From IMG/VR virus record IMGVR_UViG_2667528037_000002, positions 1-64,000 of that record: a stretch of DNA of 64,000 bases; one strand, given 5' to 3'. The notes under the pieces are model-generated. The model ran no database searches. It saw nothing but the letters and a program-made list of their open reading frames with translations, and was not told the DNA's origin. The stretch is from a virus. Taxonomy: Duplodnaviria; Heunggongvirae; Uroviricota; Caudoviricetes. Below, one piece after another: positions 39 to 29,812 of the stretch (position 1 is its first letter; the number at the start of each line of letters is the position of its first letter). A program made the position numbers and the translations under genes.

Positions 39-303
39 CAGACGGCCCGTCGCCCTCGGGAGGCTGCTCACCTTCGCCCTCGGCTAACCAACTGACTGGG
101 ACACCGCAGGCGAGTGCCCAGGCGTTTAGGACAATCTTCTTGGGGACGGTCCGGCCCTTTTCGCAATTGCCAATTACCGACCGGCCGACGCCCATCATTT
201 CGGCCAGTTGCCTTTGATCTAGTTGGGCTTCTTCCCGTGCGATCTGTAGGCGGTATCGCAGACGCATTGGGGGGATAGTCCCGGTTTCGTATGCAACGGT
301 CAT
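1..303 (-). CDS. XRE-family HTH immunity repressor-like protein. C-terminus is encoded antisense to the tRNA 3' end and the stop codon (pos 1-3) lies inside the tRNA. Alternative upstream starts at 405 or 417.
   Basis: ORF 1..417(-). HTH motif QRQLAEMMGVGRSVIGNCEKGRTVP. The Met at 303 leaves a 120-bp divergent operator region. Stop TGA is the complement of tca at 1-3. Confidence 0.6.
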   Translation of the reverse strand: MTVAYETGTIPPMRLRYRLQIAREEAQLDQRQLAEMMGVGRSVIGNCEKGRTVPKKIVLNAWALACGVPVSWLAEGEGEQPPEGDGPSVVRPKGFEPLTF

Positions 304-462
304 ATGCGCATGGTATGCGCGTACGCGCACGCTCGCAAGGTGGTGCAAATTGACCCGATCCGCAAACACCCCCTGATTGCTACTAAAGCCCAATAAGTTC
401 CCCATCTGCGAAAACATCTATAGATGCGCTTGCGCGCACTATGCGAATATGCGCAAGATGGG
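288..462. promoter_or_regulatory. Divergent promoter/operator region between repressor and cro/xis-like gene. Repeated TATGCG(C/A)A half-sites plus palindromes ATGCGCAT and GCGCGTACGCGC.
   Basis: Repeats read at ~302, 313, 438, 446. Perfect palindromes at ~304-311 and ~318-329. AT-richer than surrounding sequence. Confidence 0.5.
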
Positions 463-699
463 CGTATGGCCGCACCAACCGCTGAGACACCCGAGCAGCC
501 AGACGAGATCACCGTCACCAAGGCCGCGACTACATACAACGTCTCCAAACGGACCCTCCAGGCACTCGCCGTGTCCGGCCGCATCCCTGCACGATTGGTC
601 GGCAAGACCTACCTGCTCGACCACCAGGCAGTCCGCCTATACGCACAGGCGCGCCAGGCCACCCGCGACCTCAACGACTACGCCCAGGCCGCGTCATGA
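424..699 (+). CDS. Cro/excisionase-like HTH DNA-binding protein (MerR/Xis-type HTH_17). Alternative start 466.
   Basis: ORF track. Motif TYNVSKRTLQALAVSGRIPARLVGKTYLLD. Divergent from repressor. Confidence 0.55.
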   Translation: MRLRALCEYAQDGRMAAPTAETPEQPDEITVTKAATTYNVSKRTLQALAVSGRIPARLVGKTYLLDHQAVRLYAQARQATRDLNDYAQAAS

Positions 700-24250: not shown

Positions 24251-24505
24251 TCAGCTCGTCAGAGGCTGATCTTCAAGCGCCTGTGCCGCCCTCTTAGCCT
24301 CGTTGAGTGTCTTCTCGTCAGCGATTTCGGACCAGCCAATCGCACCTGGTTCATGGACTAGTGCCTGCCATCTGTACCCGCCATCCGCGGACTTGTAGCG
24401 CGCTAGCTCGTACTGCCTGCGGTAGGCGCCAATTTGCTTACCGCCGCCAATGGCGTCGTATAGGCCAGGGCGGACTTGTTGCCACGGAAGCCTCTCGGCC
24501 ATCAA
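24251..24505 (-). CDS. Hypothetical protein (minus-strand island)
   Basis: ORF track. Confidence 0.45.
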   Translation of the reverse strand: MMAERLPWQQVRPGLYDAIGGGKQIGAYRRQYELARYKSADGGYRWQALVHEPGAIGWSEIADEKTLNEAKRAAQALEDQPLTS

Positions 24506-24523
24506 GCACGGGACCCTTCGTGT

Positions 24524-24775
24524 TCAGGCATCGACGCTTCCGTACTCGGCAGCGGTGCGTTGCGCGGCATGTAGATTCGTGCCGCCAAGTCGCTCGGCTA
24601 CGGCCCGCTTCGCTTCGCGGAGCCCATCCGCATTGGTGATGTGCTCACCGTTGACCTTGGTCACCCACATCCATTCGTTGCAGCCGATCATGCCTTCGCG
24701 CATGCGTACGGCGGTGGCGGTGTTGGAGCCGTCGGTGCCGGTCCAGCGGCCGGGCCGCTCGCACGTCCACTTCAT
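24524..24775 (-). CDS. Hypothetical protein (minus-strand island)
   Basis: Met 40 of ORF 24524..24892 with GGAGG RBS. ATGA overlap with upstream gene. Confidence 0.45.
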   Translation of the reverse strand: MKWTCERPGRWTGTDGSNTATAVRMREGMIGCNEWMWVTKVNGEHITNADGLREAKRAVAERLGGTNLHAAQRTAAEYGSVDA

Positions 24776-25107
24776 CGCTGTACCTCCACATATGAGACGC
24801 CGTACGTTTCTATCTCGGGATGGTTGTCGAGTATTTCTGACCCGGTCGCGGGGTCGTAGTGCTCGATCGGGACGCCGACACCGCGCGCCCACTCAACCAA
24901 GGCCGCGGCGGCGCCTTCTGGCGTGACGTAGACGCCGATCCAACCGCCCCGATGCTCAATCAGTTCGAGTTGCGCGACCCACACCTTGGCTACTACGGCA
25001 TATCCGGCGCGTTCGAGTGCGTCCAGCGCAGCATCTGCCTGTGGCCATCCACCGCCCAGGCTGTCCGCGATGATGTCGCGCGGTGCGGCGACGTCAGGGC
25101 CGGTCAC
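24772..25107 (-). CDS. Hypothetical protein (minus-strand island)
   Basis: ORF track. Confidence 0.5.
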   Translation of the reverse strand: MTGPDVAAPRDIIADSLGGGWPQADAALDALERAGYAVVAKVWVAQLELIEHRGGWIGVYVTPEGAAAALVEWARGVGVPIEHYDPATGSEILDNHPEIETYGVSYVEVQR

Positions 25108-25298
25108 GGTCGGATGTTCTGGCGTCGGACCTCGGCCAGTGTCTCGTCGACCATCTTGTCTGCCGCGTCGTTGGTCAGCCGGACGCCGTCGCCGACGAGG
25201 AATTCTTCTTTGTCGAGGTCGATGTCGTCGACGACCAGGTCATCGCCGAAGGTGAGGCGCTTGAGGTCGGCTTCGCTGTGACTGCTCATGAGGGTCAT
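25104..25298 (-). CDS. Small acidic protein (possible antitoxin-like partner)
   Basis: Met 16 of ORF 25104..25343 preceded by AGGAGG. Confidence 0.45.
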   Translation of the reverse strand: MTLMSSHSEADLKRLTFGDDLVVDDIDLDKEEFLVGDGVRLTNDAADKMVDETLAEVRRQNIRP

Positions 25299-25546
25299 TG
25301 TGCCCCTCCTTTCCGGTACTTGGTGGGCATGGCGTGGATACATACCCAGGTCCAGTCCTGGGTGGCGTGTGGGACCAGGATCAGCTCCAGCTCGACACCG
25401 GTGTCGTCGGTGCCGATGAAGTAGAGGCGCCAGATGCCGTCGCGGTTGTCGACGAGGAGCGGCATACCTGCGTTGCGGAGTGCCGACGTGACGCGGCGCT
25501 TGTTGGCGCGCATCCGCGCTTTCGCTGTGAGTATCACTCTTGCCAT
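25295..25546 (-). CDS. Small basic protein, first gene of minus-strand operon. Start codon embedded in 30-bp repeat.
   Basis: ORF track. Confidence 0.5.
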   Translation of the reverse strand: MARVILTAKARMRANKRRVTSALRNAGMPLLVDNRDGIWRLYFIGTDDTGVELELILVPHATQDWTWVCIHAMPTKYRKGGAQ

Positions 25547-25573
25547 GACTCAGAATGTATAGCGCACTATACG
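25544..25573. promoter_or_regulatory. 30-bp repeat copy 1 (CATGACTCAGAATGTATAGCGCACTATACG): palindrome GTATAG-N4-CTATAC plus -10-like TATAC. Leaderless-type promoter/operator for minus-strand island.
   Basis: Inverted copy at 29063..29092. Start codon of gene 25295..25546(-) is inside the repeat. Confidence 0.5.
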
Positions 25574-25601
25574 AAAGAACAAGCCTTAACGACCTTGCTT
25601 C

Positions 25602-25633
25602 TGTGTATAGCTCTGTATACGTTCCGAGTCATG
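25602..25633 (+). promoter_or_regulatory. Third related promoter copy (TGTATAGctcTGTATACgtTCCGAgTCATG) driving secreted-protein gene
   Basis: Shares TATAC-N2-TCYGA-N-TCATG leader with the two 30-bp repeats. Confidence 0.4.
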
Positions 25634-25969
25634 AAAAGCCTTTATGTAAAACGTATTGCCGTCATCGGTGCCGCCATCGCGGCCCTAACGGTGCTCCCAA
25701 CTGCGACCGCCTCCGCGTTTCCCGACCGTTGCCTGTATGCCGCGACAGACGCCAAGACCTGCCTGGGCGCCCGACCGGCGCCCTTCACGCCAGCCGGTGG
25801 CGGCGGATACAAACCACCGGAGGACCCGGAATGCCCTGAGGGCCAGCACCGTCCATCTACAGCTCCGGCAGGTCCTCGCGCGGGCGAAACTGGAGGTAAC
25901 AGCGCTGGTAGCGGGTCTGCTAGTAGCGGTGGTTCCTCGGCGAGCGGAGGAGCTGGCGCCGGACGGTGA
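25631..25969 (+). CDS. Secreted protein with signal peptide, Gly/Ser-rich C-terminus
   Basis: Met 112 of ORF 25298..25969. MKSLYVKRIAVIGAAIAALTVLPTATASA|FP. Confidence 0.55.
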   Translation: MKSLYVKRIAVIGAAIAALTVLPTATASAFPDRCLYAATDAKTCLGARPAPFTPAGGGGYKPPEDPECPEGQHRPSTAPAGPRAGETGGNSAGSGSASSGGSSASGGAGAGR

Positions 25970-26016
25970 TGGTCGCGGCTACCGAGCGGCTATACAGCCA
26001 AGCCTCAATCCTGTTG

Positions 26017-26034
26017 CAGCACCGCTATACCGCG
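26017..26034. promoter_or_regulatory. Perfect 18-bp palindrome GCTATACCGCGGTATAGC upstream of ncRNA array
   Basis: Read directly. Arms related to the GTATAG/CTATAC operator motif. Confidence 0.4.
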
Positions 26035-26065
26035 GTATAGCTTCGTTTTCAGACAACAAAACAAC

Positions 26066-26189
26066 GGACGACGTGAACAGAATGCAGGTCGGTTATCTCG
26101 GGGTACGCCCCCGTAGTTCAAGTTAGAACGCCCCGAGCCAAGCGGGGAAATGGAGCCAAACCCGCCCAGCGCCAACCACGTTCACGTCA
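26066..26189 (+). ncRNA. Y-RNA-like unit 0 (variant): closing stem GACGTGAAC/GTTCACGTC, internal D-arm-like and CCCCG/CGGGG hairpins
   Basis: 9-bp perfect terminal pairing. Starts with shared motif GTGAACAG..GCAGGTCGGTTATC. Confidence 0.35.
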
Positions 26190-26220
26190 CCCCCAGGCCA
26201 CAACTACATAGACACCAGAT

Positions 26221-26359
26221 GGTGCGAGCAGGACGCAGGTCGGTTACCACTTGTAATGGAGAGGTCGCGGGTTCGAGTCCCGCCAGCCAGCCCCCGGCTG
26301 TAGCTCAGTTGGCAGAGCGCTAAACCCCGGTCAGCACACACACGTTCGCCCCATCACCC
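26221..26359 (+). ncRNA. Y-RNA-like (YrlA-type) unit 1 with permuted tRNA-like module: T-arm GCGGGTTCGAGTCCCGC, closed acceptor-like hairpin CAGCC-agccccc-GGCTG, D-arm TAGCTCAGTTGGCAGAGCG
   Basis: Canonical T-loop and D-loop sequences in T-then-D order with hairpin-closed acceptor stem. No anticodon arm. Flanked by conserved 5' and 3' motifs. Confidence 0.5.
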
Positions 26360-26381
26360 AACACAACTCCATGCACAGCAC

Positions 26382-26507
26382 GGTGTGAACAGGACTTCGT
26401 TCGGTTATCTCCTTTCCTGAGAGAGACGCGGGTTCGAATCCCGCCAGCCATGAAAGTGGTTGTAGCTCAGCGGCCTAGAGCGCTAAACCCGGACGAAACC
26501 CACACGC
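26382..26507 (+). ncRNA. Y-RNA-like unit 2: T-arm GCGGGTTCGAATCCCGC, hairpin CAGCC-atgaaagt-GGTTG, D-arm TAGCTCAGCGGCCTAGAGCG. Ends GGTGTGA/TCACACC pair.
   Basis: As unit 1. Exact 7-bp terminal pairing. Confidence 0.5.
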
Positions 26508-26547
26508 TCACACCACCTCAAACACCAGCAGACGCATGCGTGCAGGC

Positions 26548-26687
26548 GGTGTGGACAGGACGCAGGTCGGTTACCAAAACAGTCAGGTGTGGGTTCGAGC
26601 CCCACCACCTCGCCCGCGGGGTGTAGCCCAATTGGTAGAGGCAATTGTCCACATAGGCCGGTCAGCACCCCACACGCCCACACCACC
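26548..26687 (+). ncRNA. Y-RNA-like unit 3: T-arm GTGGGTTCGAGCCCCAC, short hairpin, D-arm GTGTAGCCCAATTGGTAGAGGC
   Basis: As unit 1. Terminal GGTGTGGA/CCACACC pairing. Confidence 0.45.
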
Positions 26688-26712
26688 TACGCGCACGCAC
26701 GACAGACAACCC

Positions 26713-26832
26713 GATGTGAACAGGAAGCTCGGTCGGTTATCACTCAATTGGTTAATGCAGGTTCAATCCCTGTCGCCTGCACTTAGTGCGGGTGTAAAAG
26801 CGAAATCCCGGTCAGCACACACACGTTCACAT
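26713..26832 (+). ncRNA. Y-RNA-like unit 4 (divergent): closing stem GATGTGAAC/GTTCACATC, T-arm GCAGGTTCAATCCCTGT, hairpin CCTGCAC-tta-GTGCGGG
   Basis: 9-bp perfect terminal pairing. T-loop TTCAATC. Confidence 0.45.
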
Positions 26833-26853
26833 CACCCGCCCAATAGCCCTCGC

Positions 26854-26935
26854 GGGTGGCACGAGCAGGATCGCAGTCGGTTACCCCACCCCTCGCAAGG
26901 ATGACGAACCCCGGCAGCCCTTCACACGTTCGCGC
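26854..26935 (+). ncRNA. Degenerate/partial Y-RNA-like unit 5 (5' motif present, no T-arm) abutting rsr RBS
   Basis: Shared 5' motif GGTGGCACGAGCAGGATCGCAGTCGGTTACC. Confidence 0.2.
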
Positions 26936-26965
26936 CGCCCGCACCCTCTAACAAGGAGATGCACG

Positions 26966-28681
26966 GTGGACGTTCTCACCACTATCGGAACCCGTAAGAC
27001 GCCGCAGTCGCAGCAGGCGGACCCCCGGCAGGTGAAGAACTCCGCCGGTGGCTACACCTTCACCATCGACGACGAGGCCCTGCTGCACCGCTTCCTCACC
27101 CTCGGCACCGACGGCGGCACCTACTACACCACCGCCCCCGACCTCACCAAGGAAACAGCGGCCGTCGTGCTCCGCGCAGCAGCGGCCGACCCAGTCCGCC
27201 TCGTCCAGCACATCGTCGAGGTGTCTGTGGCCGGACGCGCACCCCGGCAGAACCCGGCCCTGTTCGCCCTCGCCATCGCCGCCGCAGCAGAGGACGTCGA
27301 CGGCCGCCGCGCCGCCGCAGCAGCCCTGCCCACGGTCGCCCGCACCGGCACCCAGCTCTACACGTTCGTGAAGTACATGGAGCAGTTCCGCGGGTGGGGC
27401 CGCGCCATGCAGCGCGCCGTCGGCGGCTGGTACCTCGACAAGCCCGTCGACCGCCTCGCCTACCAGCTGGTCAAGTACCGGCAGCGCGAAGGCTGGATGC
27501 ACCGGGACCTACTACGCCTGTCCGGCCCCACCACGGCGGACCCGGCCCGCCGCCTCGCCTTCAACTGGGCAGTCGGCAAGGGCCTGAACGACTACATCGG
27601 TAAGGTCCAGCCCCTCACTGCCGAGCAGTTGAAGGCGGGGGAGCGCAACGCCTCCCGGCCCAAGCTGCCTAACGTCGAGCTTGTGGTTGACCACCCCCTG
27701 GCGATCATCGAGGACTTCGAGGATGCCCAGCGCGCCACCCAGCCCAAGGAATGGGTGAGCATCATTCGACGTGGCAACGGCCTTCCCTGGGAAGCGTTGC
27801 CAGACGTCGCGCTCAACTTCACCGCTGTGTGGGAAGCGCTGATTGAGCACGGTCTGCCGCAGACCGCATTGATGCGCCAACTGCCTCGCCTGACCCGGCA
27901 TGGGGTCCTCCATGGTGAATATCTGGATCGCGTGGTTGCTCAGCTCCAGGACGCCGACCGTCTACGCAAGGGACGCGTACACCCGGTCAACGTTCTGATC
28001 GCACAGCGCACCTACGCGTCCGGGCGTTCGGCGCGCGGCGACTCCACCTGGACGCCGGAACGCAAGGTCGTGGACGCTCTGGACGCCGCGTTCTACAACG
28101 CCTACGGCGCGGTAGAGCCGTCGGGCAAGCGCACCCTGCTGGCGCTGGACGTGTCCGGCTCCATGGGCGCCGCGATCTCGGGTATGCCGCTGACATGCCG
28201 CGAGGCCGCAGCCGCACTCGCACTCGTCACCACCAACGTTGAGCCCGACCACGAGGTCGTCGGCTTCACCGACGGACGACAGGCCGCGCGCTCGGGCTAC
28301 GGCTACCGGTCCCAGCACCACATCACCCCGCTGGACATCACACCGCGCCGCCGCCTCGACGACGTGTGCCGGTACACCGCCGGACTCAGCTTCGGCGCCA
28401 CCGACTGCGCACTCCCGATGCTGTGGGCACAACAGTCCAAGCGCGAGTTCGACACGTTCGTGGTCATCACCGACAACGAAACCTGGTTCGGCGACGTCCA
28501 CCCACACCAGGCGCTCCGCGACTACCGCAACAAGACGGGCATCAACGCCCGCCTGATCGTTGTCGGCATGACGGCAACCCGCTTCACCATCGCCGACCCC
28601 GACGACCCCGGCCAGCTCGACGTGTCCGGTTTCGACTCGGCTGTCCCGCAGCTGATCTCGGACTTCTCGGCCGGACTGTAG
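26966..28681 (+). CDS. rsr: Ro60/Rsr ortholog (TROVE domain + C-terminal vWA/MIDAS)
   Basis: Long colinear similarity to Ro60 C-terminal half (HRDLLRLS, LDAAFYNAYGAVEPSGKRTLLALDVSGSM, FGATDCALPMLWAQ, VVITDNETWFGDVHP, RLIVVGMTATRFTIADPDDPGQLDVSGFD). GTG start with RBS aaggag. Confidence 0.92.
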   Translation: MDVLTTIGTRKTPQSQQADPRQVKNSAGGYTFTIDDEALLHRFLTLGTDGGTYYTTAPDLTKETAAVVLRAAAADPVRLVQHIVEVSVAGRAPRQNPALFALAIAAAAEDVDGRRAAAAALPTVARTGTQLYTFVKYMEQFRGWGRAMQRAVGGWYLDKPVDRLAYQLVKYRQREGWMHRDLLRLSGPTTADPARRLAFNWAVGKGLNDYIGKVQPLTAEQLKAGERNASRPKLPNVELVVDHPLAIIEDFEDAQRATQPKEWVSIIRRGNGLPWEALPDVALNFTAVWEALIEHGLPQTALMRQLPRLTRHGVLHGEYLDRVVAQLQDADRLRKGRVHPVNVLIAQRTYASGRSARGDSTWTPERKVVDALDAAFYNAYGAVEPSGKRTLLALDVSGSMGAAISGMPLTCREAAAALALVTTNVEPDHEVVGFTDGRQAARSGYGYRSQHHITPLDITPRRRLDDVCRYTAGLSFGATDCALPMLWAQQSKREFDTFVVITDNETWFGDVHPHQALRDYRNKTGINARLIVVGMTATRFTIADPDDPGQLDVSGFDSAVPQLISDFSAGL

Positions 28682-28687
28682 GAACGC

Positions 28688-28918
28688 GTGGACCCAAGGG
28701 CACAGCAGGCGCGGGAGCATCACCGGTTGCAGCGTGATGCCTCCCGCGTCGGCGAACAACACCGGTACGAACGAGACCGGCTAGTTCGTGAACTGTGGAC
28801 CACCGAACGAGAGAAGTGGACCTACGCCACGTTGGCCGCGGCGGTGACGTGCAGCCCGGGACTGATCCAGAAGATTCTCGACGGCCGCACCCCAACAGCC
28901 CAGCACGTCACCAGGTAA
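28688..28918 (+). CDS. Small HTH protein downstream of rsr
   Basis: ORF track. C-terminal HTH-like YATLAAAVTCSPGLIQKILDG. Confidence 0.4.
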   Translation: MDPRAQQAREHHRLQRDASRVGEQHRYERDRLVRELWTTEREKWTYATLAAAVTCSPGLIQKILDGRTPTAQHVTR

Positions 28919-29062
28919 AGGAAGGCAGACGCCGCAATGGATTTCAACACCCCACTCCAAAGCCTGAACGGCTGGCCCGCCGCGGTCGTCCTTGCCGTCG
29001 TGGTCCTCTGCGTGACGGCCGTGATCATCGCGGTTATCCGCGCCGACTAACGCTCGACGCGA

Positions 29063-29092
29063 CGTATAGCGCACTATACAGTCTGAATCATG
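29063..29092. promoter_or_regulatory. 30-bp repeat copy 2 (CGTATAGCGCACTATACAGTCTGAATCATG), inverted relative to copy 1. Start codon of gene 29090 inside.
   Basis: Identity with copy 1 in reverse orientation in ~26/30 positions. Palindrome GTATAGCGCACTATAC at 29064..29079. Confidence 0.5.
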
Positions 29093-29419
29093 AATGAGAC
29101 CCTGACGGCCCAGCAGCTAGCGTCCTTTGAGGACAGCCTCAATAACTATGCAGGCGACGGTGAATTGCCCACTATCCGAACGGACTACAGCGGTCGGGCC
29201 ATGTACGGCAGGGAATGCCTAGCCGTCGTACTCGACGACTCCAGCTTCACCCCCGCAGTCACCGCCGAACTGGCCTACGTCCTGGCAGACACCGACGATG
29301 ACGTCGCGGAACTCGTAGACCGTATCTGGTCGCTGCCCACCTACACCGACAACATGGGCCACCGCACCGTCATCTACTGGCCAAACATCAAGGCTCCCAA
29401 CACTGCCGGAGAGGACTAG
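29090..29419 (+). CDS. Hypothetical protein
   Basis: ORF track. Confidence 0.5.
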   Translation: MNETLTAQQLASFEDSLNNYAGDGELPTIRTDYSGRAMYGRECLAVVLDDSSFTPAVTAELAYVLADTDDDVAELVDRIWSLPTYTDNMGHRTVIYWPNIKAPNTAGED

Positions 29420-29425
29420 ACGACC

Positions 29426-29812
29426 ATGACGACACCCGCCCCGCGCATGTTCGGCCTCGGCGCCATCTTGACCGTGACGACCGACCTGATGCTGGTAGCC
29501 GACATCGGCGACATCTACGCACTCCTCAACTACATGACCGGCGACAACCTGTTTACCCATCAATTGCCTCGTGCCGCAGGCGAATGCAAGCCAGCACTGC
29601 TGGCACAACATCCCCAACTGGCCGACGTCGACGTACCCGAAATGCCTGATGCAGAGGCCTACATGACCTACCTGGCCAACCTGGAAAAGGTGCACGGCGC
29701 CGAACTGGCCGTCACACCGCTGGCCGCGGGCGCGCACAAGCACATCAACCCGTTGACCGAGCTAGCCGACATGATGCCCGGCAGGCCCATCATCACCGTT
29801 GTCGCACCATGA
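29426..29812 (+). CDS. Hypothetical protein
   Basis: ORF track. Confidence 0.5.
   Translation: MTTPAPRMFGLGAILTVTTDLMLVADIGDIYALLNYMTGDNLFTHQLPRAAGECKPALLAQHPQLADVDVPEMPDAEAYMTYLANLEKVHGAELAVTPLAAGAHKHINPLTELADMMPGRPIITVVAP

Follow-up and report, generated by a model that had tools for sequence, protein, structure and literature searches.

Palindromes that overlap the -10 and -35 elements of several promoters serve as immunity operators in temperate phages of the lambda (cI/Cro) and BPs types. Stoperators, which are likewise bound by the immunity repressor, are asymmetric 13-bp sites, numerous and placed inside transcribed regions along the direction of transcription, and type II toxin-antitoxin operons are usually autorepressed through palindromes in their promoters. 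Stoperators of the cluster A and MabJ phages are mentioned in PMC9934374, and most transcripts of mycobacterial toxin-antitoxin systems lack a leader according to PMC8485053. Genomes of cluster O, which have leaderless SigA-like promoters in divergent arrangement and more than 30 scattered copies of a 17-bp palindrome (TGTTCGG-N3-CCGAACA; PMC4351075), are the nearest described mycobacteriophage relatives of the system analyzed here. This is a family of palindromic sites of the type GTATAG-N4-CTATAC, present in a stretch of 64,000 nucleotides of viral DNA (IMG/VR record IMGVR_UViG_2667528037_000002, positions 1 to 64,000; hereafter the window).

The closest relatives of the region 24.5-30 kb of the window in megablast were prophiGD43A-5 (94.6% identity) and prophiT37-1 (93.5%), both prophages of Mycobacterium abscessus that belong to cluster MabK and have integration-dependent immunity. 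Position 1 of the prophiGD43A-5 record aligns to position 2 of the window, and the window terminates within the tail genes; by this alignment it represents the first 64 kb of a MabK prophage of M. abscessus of about 76 kb, the right-hand 12 kb of which lie outside.

An earlier interpretation based on the window alone (the sequence-only reading) had described two 30-bp inverted repeats that bracket a module of a secreted-protein gene, Y RNAs and rsr. It regarded them as part of a regulon with palindromic operators, leaderless promoters and one DNA-binding protein, or alternatively as the ends of an acquired cassette. Comparative evidence (seven sites, invariant half-sites and conserved geometry) supports the regulon with its palindromic operator, leaderless genes and single binder, while the bracketing and the regulators named were not upheld. 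It is rather probable from the comparisons that the repeats are copies of a promoter-operator unit of about 45 bp, found at seven accessory promoters and recognized by a dimeric helix-turn-helix (HTH) repressor, for which the gp109 family is the leading candidate. The palindrome would be the operator of this repressor, and the bound protein would block RNA polymerase at all seven promoters together. The units so controlled in the window would be the brnT-like toxin-antitoxin operon, the secreted-protein gene, the gp55 operon and probably the Y-RNA/rsr/gp53/gp54 operon. Beyond the window they would include gp109, a lipoprotein gene upstream of a type VII polymorphic-toxin cassette, an open reading frame (ORF) of 105 amino acids (aa), and gp115.

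The sites resemble the repressor operators of temperate phages in being dyads with about 10 bp between the half-site centres, in lying in the promoter core and at several promoters, and probably in being served by a small autoregulating HTH dimer. Unlike these, they stand away from the immunity switch, on promoters of accessory genes in the middle of the genome and at its right end. With cluster O they share a palindrome that is specific to the cluster and has a variable centre between invariant arms, SigA-type promoters predicted to be leaderless, a divergent pair among them, and repeats at gene-insertion junctions; however, the many palindromes of cluster O stand mostly apart from promoters, whereas each of the seven MabK copies is built into one. 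Like stoperators they would provide multiple repressor-binding sites across a prophage genome, but they are symmetric, few and all in promoters. The palindrome over the promoter of a toxin-antitoxin operon predicted to be leaderless recalls type II autoregulation, yet the antitoxin has no detected DNA-binding domain and the same site serves six units of other kinds. The sites are not stoperators, not a transposon and not a simple case of toxin-antitoxin autoregulation. What is new is the proposed control circuit in this phage group, a phage repressor with several operators being already known, and no description of the GTATAG-N4-CTATAC motif was found in the two MabK papers or by full-text searches.

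Sites in the window

Both inverted repeats exist, with CATGACTCAGAATGTATAGCGCACTATACG at 25544-25573 and CATGATTCAGACTGTATAGTGCGCTATACG as the reverse complement of 29063-29092, and as an inverted pair they match at 26 of 30 positions. Their terminal CAT/ATG are, as had been proposed, start codons of genes that point outward, the ORF of a BrnT-like toxin (25546 leftward to 25295) and a homologue of gp55 (29090 rightward to 29419). The 16-bp core GTATAGCGCACTATAC is the same in direct orientation at 25557 and 29064, and the inversion is confined to the flank towards the ATG. A third copy, GTATAGCTCTGTATAC, had also been recognized correctly and lies at 25605-25620, 10 nucleotides (nt) upstream of the ATG at 25631. 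The perfect 18-bp palindrome GCTATACCGCGGTATAGC that had been placed at about 26017 is present as well, at 26024-26041. The repeats do not bracket one unit: further copies of the element lie within the module (25605 and 26024) and at three loci some 40 kb distant. The promoter regions of brnT and the secreted-protein gene form an inverted duplication of 45 nt (25539-25583 and 25594-25638).

Three matches to GTATAG-N4-CTATAC with at most two mismatches were found in the window against 0.34 expected, and none of 100 shuffled sequences reached three. The looser pattern TATA-N6-TATA gave four matches, the sites at 25557, 25605, 26024 and 29064, against 0.01 expected. Chance does not account for the sites. 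The fourth of them is a candidate operator on the promoter of the Y RNAs and rsr. It was also predicted as terminator-like (hairpin -12.2 kcal/mol, z -1.9) and could, judged by this folding, act as a weak terminator hairpin for the secreted-protein gene.

Distribution in MabK genomes

Three more copies are present in the last 8 kb of prophiGD43A-5 and in the same places of prophiT37-1, giving seven sites per complete MabK genome. All seven lie directly upstream of transcription units, TATA-N6-TATA occurs nowhere else in the complete MabK genomes, and no GTATAG-type site was found in 1-19 kb of them. The search of related genomes that had been suggested as a check did not find the motif scattered independently of genes. 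Among 50,697 phage records, the motif was carried by the two MabK genomes only. A scan of IMG/VR with contig look-ups added parts of at least seven further MabK-type prophages, the matches in low-GC metagenomes being at chance level. A scan of a genome collection of 596 Gb for GTATAGNGCNCTATAC (14 specified bases) gave, among the matches listed, chance-level matches in unrelated taxa. The seven sites are lettered A, B and C for the three GTATAG-type operators of the window and D, E, F and H for the others; the coordinates are collected in Table 1. In prophiGD43A-5 (MW584167) the operators begin at 25342, 25390, about 25809, 28849, 69101, 73200 and 73656.

The annotation differs at one of the right-end sites. 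In prophiGD43A-5 gene 114 has been assigned to the minus strand (73.2-73.6 kb; L004 38223-38597), and in prophiT37-1 the annotated gene is instead an overlapping ORF of 105 aa on the plus strand (MSIAST...). The plus-strand ORF is probably the real gene, with a promoter-operator upstream and a terminator hairpin followed by a T-run downstream.

Table 1. Coordinates of the sites, predicted promoter elements and genes; positions refer to the window unless prophiGD43A-5 is named.
Feature	Position	Strand	Remarks
Left inverted repeat	25544..25573	.	Start codon CAT 25544-25546, 7-nt gap, -10, operator A
Right inverted repeat	29063..29092	.	Read from sequence
Operator A, GTATAGCGCACTATAC, perfect half-site pair	25557..25572	.	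Half-sites invariant in 8 variants
Operator B, GTATAGCTCTGTATAC	25605..25620	.	Second half-site GTATAC in all variants
Palindrome GCTATACCGCGGTATAGC, fourth TATA-N6-TATA site, edge G and C swapped	26024..26041	.	Invariant in all MabK variants
Operator C, GTATAGCGCACTATAC	29064..29079	.	Spacer CGCA, CAGA, CGAA or TGCA among variants; half-sites fixed
brnT -10, TACATT	25554..25559	-	-13..-8 from ATG 25546; geometry conserved in all variants
brnT -35-like, TTGTTC	25577..25582	-	17-nt spacer to -10; predicted from sequence
Secreted-protein gene -35-like, TTGCTT	25595..25600	+	17-nt spacer; in 45-nt inverted duplication with brnT promoter
Secreted-protein gene -10, TACGTT	25618..25623	+	7 nt to ATG 25631
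Promoter at 26024 site, -35 TTGCAG and -10 TAGCTT	26014-26019 and 26038-26043		18 nt between elements; about 20 nt to first Y-RNA-like repeat
gp55 -35-like, TCGACG (relatives: TCGACA)	29054..29059	+	17-nt spacer; conserved in variants
gp55 -10, TACAGT	29077..29082	+	7 nt to ATG 29090
Right-end site over -10 TATACT, 6 nt before gene 109 ATG	about 69.1 kb of prophiGD43A-5		Gene follows strong terminator ending lysis cassette
Right-end site, perfect 22-bp palindrome			Between leftward lipoprotein gene 113 (upstream of type VII polymorphic-toxin cassette) and rightward 105-aa ORF
Right-end site upstream of gene 115			Gene 115 has normal Shine-Dalgarno
TGCGC-N4-GCGCA palindromes	316-329, 425-438, 442-455		Two perfect, one with 1 mismatch; in 170-bp region between repressor gene and first rightward gene
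BrnT-like toxin, first gene of leftward operon	25295..25546	-	Relatives' annotation; phrog_36779 toxin, E 3.6e-34
Antitoxin	25104-25298	-	Followed by three small ORFs to about 24251
Signal-peptide protein, 112 aa	25631..25969	+	Unannotated in MW584167 and OQ417969
About five tandem Y-RNA-like (YrlA-like) units with tRNA-like domains	26065..26950	+	Repeat families, about 150-166 nt each
rsr, Ro60 orthologue with TROVE and vWA domains	26966..28681	+	Pfam TROVE on homologues
gp53, 76 aa, long N-terminal helix and C-terminal HTH	28688..28918	+	HTH_31 E 8e-4, below cut-off; AlphaFold predicted local distance difference test (pLDDT) 83
gp54, predicted membrane protein of 37 aa, last before promoter C	28937..29050	+	Relatives' annotation
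gp55 homologue, first of next rightward operon	29090..29419	+	Relatives' annotation; phrog_14658, unknown function

Conservation of the sites

Variation was counted over eight orthologous site classes from more than nine prophage variants, recording for each column the number of classes that show any variation. None of the eight classes varied in the eight TATA columns. The four edge G/C columns varied on average in 0.25 classes per column, the four spacer columns in 3.5 and the flanks in 2.5-3.5. The distance from operator to ATG is constant at 10 nt for brnT, the secreted-protein gene and gp55, and the letters between vary. In the divergent relative L183, the gp109 homologue of which is 62% identical, exact GTATAG/CTATAC half-sites are retained at three sites with flanks that are unrecognisable. 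Conserved half-sites around a free spacer were found both among the MabK variants and in L183. Half-sites that stay invariant about 10 bp apart, with a free centre between them, are the pattern that recognition by a dimeric DNA-binding protein leaves. Neither a promoter by itself nor a hairpin in RNA would preserve the half-site distal to the -10, and the predicted transcription start is downstream of the palindrome at six of the seven sites.

The variant L182/L023 has a promoter-operator at the 3' end of gp53 that precedes an extra gene of 83 aa, again predicted to be leaderless, followed by a gp55 homologue with a Shine-Dalgarno sequence. Such promoter-operator units may serve as junctions for the exchange of accessory genes.

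Promoter anatomy and predicted leaderless starts

The common layout, that of a mycobacterial SigA-type promoter, is a -35-like element (TTGnnn or TCGACr), 17-18 bp and a TAnnnT element, with the GTATAG-N4-CTATAC palindrome inside the spacer and overlapping the -10; at each of the seven sites the -10 begins within the right arm of the palindrome. The sites thus overlap core promoter elements in the manner of operators for dimeric repressors. The sequence-only reading had already proposed a -10 overlapped by the palindrome and close to the ATG, and the sequence bears this out. The hexamer TATAC that it named is better replaced by TACATT, TACGTT and TACAGT at -13 to -8, and the -10 of gp109 is TATACT at -12 to -7 from its ATG.

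The interval between -10 and ATG leaves no room for a Shine-Dalgarno sequence at the sites of brnT, the secreted-protein gene and gp55. Start sites mapped across the genome of M. tuberculosis gave the rule of a TAnnnT centred 7-12 nt upstream of the start site without a -35 consensus (PMC3898074), and sites A, B and C and the gp109 site conform to the mycobacterial TAnnnT -10. Since this geometry fits the rule, leaderless mRNAs that start at or next to the ATG are predicted. Transcription would then begin at or next to the start codon of brnT, the secreted-protein gene, gp55 and gp109, the mRNAs of which should be leaderless with the ATG 6-7 nt past the -10.

Candidate regulators

From these patterns we infer that a protein binds the sites, and the leading candidate, held tentatively and at somewhat less than even chances, is gp109 (QST89516.1), a protein of 73 aa encoded in prophiGD43A-5 beyond the part of the prophage that the window covers. 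It weakly matches phrog_686 (HTH DNA-binding protein) and phrog_4268 (transcriptional repressor), and its AlphaFold model (pLDDT 80) has a long helix of about 40 residues and a two-helix HTH. The gene is a separate unit behind a terminator with the operator over its own -10, and the motif is present at every locus with a gene of the gp109 family. The operator on its own promoter suggests negative autoregulation, in which gp109 would repress its own gene. Homologue searches found the family almost exclusively in prophages of M. abscessus; its distant relatives are on very short contigs. One such relative, on a metagenome contig (L193 800-850), has another palindrome, GTGTCTC-N5-GAGACAC, directly upstream of a possible leaderless start; this single and anecdotal case is consistent with autoregulation in the gp109 family.

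Several points weigh against this interpretation. All the cases in which gp109 and the motif occur together belong to a single related phage lineage and do not count as independent evidence, and the HTH assignments are below curated thresholds. Fold searches of the gp109 and gp53 models against the PDB gave no match with E <0.7; in these models the C-terminal helices resemble HTH domains, and nothing more. The site at 26024, with its edge bases swapped, could be a terminator hairpin only. In the GenBank relatives the annotated start of the BrnT-like toxin is a GTG (window 25537) that lies 9 nt inside the ORF, but the conserved ATG at 25546 is more likely the start, since 10 nt separate it from the operator, as they do at the other starts predicted to be leaderless. 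A mild objection is that an E. coli-style sigma-70 consensus scan (at least 9 of 12 for TTGACA/TATAAT) of 22-36 kb found no promoter. This was to be expected, as the -35 elements are weak and mycobacteria show no -35 consensus (PMC3898074). The published text on prophiGD43A-5 describes the toxin-immunity locus as expressed and most of the prophage as transcriptionally silent in the lysogen, which neither confirms nor refutes activity of the promoters.

Taken further, the MabK sites could form a second repressor circuit apart from the immunity switch, possible but doubtful as a whole. An autoregulated HTH protein of the gp109 family would hold the toxin-antitoxin operon, the Ro60/Y-RNA genes, the secreted protein and lipoproteins and the type VII toxins, all to be released together by a signal. 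The units would at the same time be portable junctions for swaps of accessory genes, as at site C in L182.

The same operators might be read by another binder, such as a host factor, the immunity repressor, or one of gp2, gp3, gp11, gp36, gp46, gp80 and gp116, and this is unlikely although the prophage encodes many annotated DNA-binding proteins and both reference genomes have homologues of gp116. Among the phage records the motif is restricted to prophages of the MabK type, and of a host factor one would expect sites in other places too. Sites at the repressor and early lytic promoter region, as expected of operators of the immunity repressor, were not found for the GTATAG type. The intergenic region between the repressor gene and P_R (window 300-466) contains instead three clustered repeats of TGCGC-N4-GCGCA (Table 1). 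These are probably the operators of the immunity repressor, to judge by their position, and a family separate from GTATAG-N4-CTATAC. Genome-wide TGCGC-N4-GCGCA is at chance level, and the clustering alone is notable.

Another variant of the regulon, improbable and less favoured than the foregoing, has gp53 as the regulator, whose feedback would act on its own operon as well as on the promoters nearby. The gp53 protein (QST89461.1) weakly matches HTH_31 and has a predicted architecture like that of gp109, a long helix with an HTH. Its gene lies between sites B/H and site C, and in one variant a site overlaps its 3' end. However, gp53 homologues that keep the conserved segment SP(G/Q)LIQKI(I/L)DGR of the predicted HTH accompany rsr in at least two other Mycobacteroides prophage types (L181 and L186-L190), where the 16-20 kb surrounding the module contain no TATA-N6-TATA. 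Where the MabK prophages have the 26024 palindrome, L181/L186 have at the homologous position only GGTATAGT. The distribution thus weakly separates the two proteins, and on this account gp109 is favoured over gp53. Of the regulators that had been suggested earlier, neither the protein of 28688-28918 nor the repressor is the best candidate, the former being present in prophages without the motif and the latter having TGCGC-N4-GCGCA in its region. A relationship of gp109 and gp53 as paralogues was considered and rejected, as BLASTP gave no alignment and hhalign a probability of 0.8%; the predicted architecture alone is common.

Other explanations of the repeats

It is very unlikely that no protein binds and that the symmetry belongs to the promoter itself, with a -10 on either strand, or to hairpins of RNA or DNA. 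Sites E and F have a TAnnnT readable on both strands, and the palindrome at 26024 could fold into a hairpin like that of a terminator. A usable -10 is, however, present on one strand only at sites A, B, C and D, where the distal half-site is equally invariant. The palindrome is outside the predicted RNA at six of the seven sites, and paired half-sites that do not vary, with a 4-bp spacer free to do so, are typical of recognition by a dimer.

There is still less reason to regard the palindrome as an autoregulatory operator of BrnT and its antitoxin, bound by the antitoxin and copied incidentally to the other places. Site A does overlap the brnT promoter, but the other six sites are conserved as well as site A or better, and L183 retains three right-end sites in strongly conserved form. 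Searches of Pfam, NCBIfam and PDB sequences matched the antitoxin (64 aa, very acidic; ORF 64-79 aa) to neither a ribbon-helix-helix nor an HTH. With no DNA-binding domain detected, the antitoxin was ruled out as the binder.

The least credible explanation takes the repeats for the ends of a 3.5-kb cassette, mobile or acquired recently, with the secreted-protein gene, the Y RNAs and rsr, an alternative raised in the sequence-only reading and contradicted by rsr, Y-RNA and gp53 genes found elsewhere without the repeats, by the lack of a transposase or target duplication, and by MabK homology that continues through both repeats. Two inverted 30-bp repeats do flank the module, and the rsr/Y-RNA/gp53 unit is a mosaic found in differing prophage backgrounds. 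However, the DNA common to otherwise unrelated prophages (73-88% identity) is limited to 26218-28666 and 28689-28890, inside the repeats. The element recurs inside the module and at the three distant loci, and the terminal triplets of the repeats are start codons of the flanking genes. No ORF for a transposase or recombinase was found in 25.5-29.1 kb. No target-site duplication is visible; on their outer sides the repeats adjoin the coding regions of brnT and gp55, and no direct repeat is present there. The MabK homology is continuous from 25094 to 29812, the module is present in all MabK variants, and presence or absence with breakpoints at the repeats was not found. In prophiGD43A-5 the stretch from operator to ATG at gp55 differs and the repeat is there about 20 bp long; this and the other contrary facts point to recent paralogy between promoter copies, and not a terminus, as the explanation of the full 30-bp similarity.

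In the other prophage types the Y-RNA array, rsr and a gp53-like gene are present together (L181 7692-10270; L186-L190, for example L186 4287-10219), with a DUF6283 gene between rsr and gp53. In L186-L188 and L190, a rightward Tox-REase-5 polymorphic toxin with its immunity gene replaces brnTA and the secreted-protein gene, and in L181 a leftward toxin cassette is located further upstream. The GTATAG-type palindrome was not found at the rsr loci of L181 or L186-L190.

Genes under the sites

The interval between the repeats falls within the long rightward early region. According to the annotation of the relatives, the gene order is the leftward BrnT-like toxin and antitoxin, a gap with one 'tRNA', rsr, two small genes, and gp55 onward. 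The leftward operon runs past the antitoxin with three small ORFs (24251-25107, minus strand), two of which match phrog_30044 and phrog_9162 of unknown function. The gap holds the ORF of 112 aa, which nine MabK variants carry intact and in which synonymous codon differences are about twice as numerous as nonsynonymous ones. Also the Y-RNA-like units are located there, their Rfam YrlA matches being below the gathering score (E 7e-6 to 0.01). Y RNAs beside Ro60 genes are already known from mycobacteriophages (PMC4201824). ARAGORN reports a 'tRNA-Thr(tgt)' at 26215-26293, annotated also in prophiGD43A-5, that overlaps a YrlA-like match; it has the look of a Y RNA's tRNA-like domain and not of a functional tRNA. 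A PADLOC scan of the unknown proteins of the regulon gave no match to defence systems.

The annotation is corrected in several points: it gains a secreted-protein gene and starts predicted to be leaderless, and one tRNA call is better taken as a Y-RNA domain. The toxins, toxin-antitoxin pairs and Ro60/Y-RNA modules of M. abscessus prophages may affect virulence, stress tolerance and phage resistance. One conserved operator on seven promoters with one candidate regulator gives a testable handle on the control of such accessory genes, and it would tie a phage Ro/Y-RNA module to the same control as toxin systems. The promoter-operator unit could also be a compact element for regulated expression in M. 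abscessus genetics.

Two further observations concern the window as a whole. It carries about 570 bases (24526-25094) beyond prophiGD43A-5. At positions 1-40 it has the 3' end of a tRNA gene (GGTTCGAATCC, T-arm), which corresponds to the attL junction at the attB-1 integration site described for MabK.

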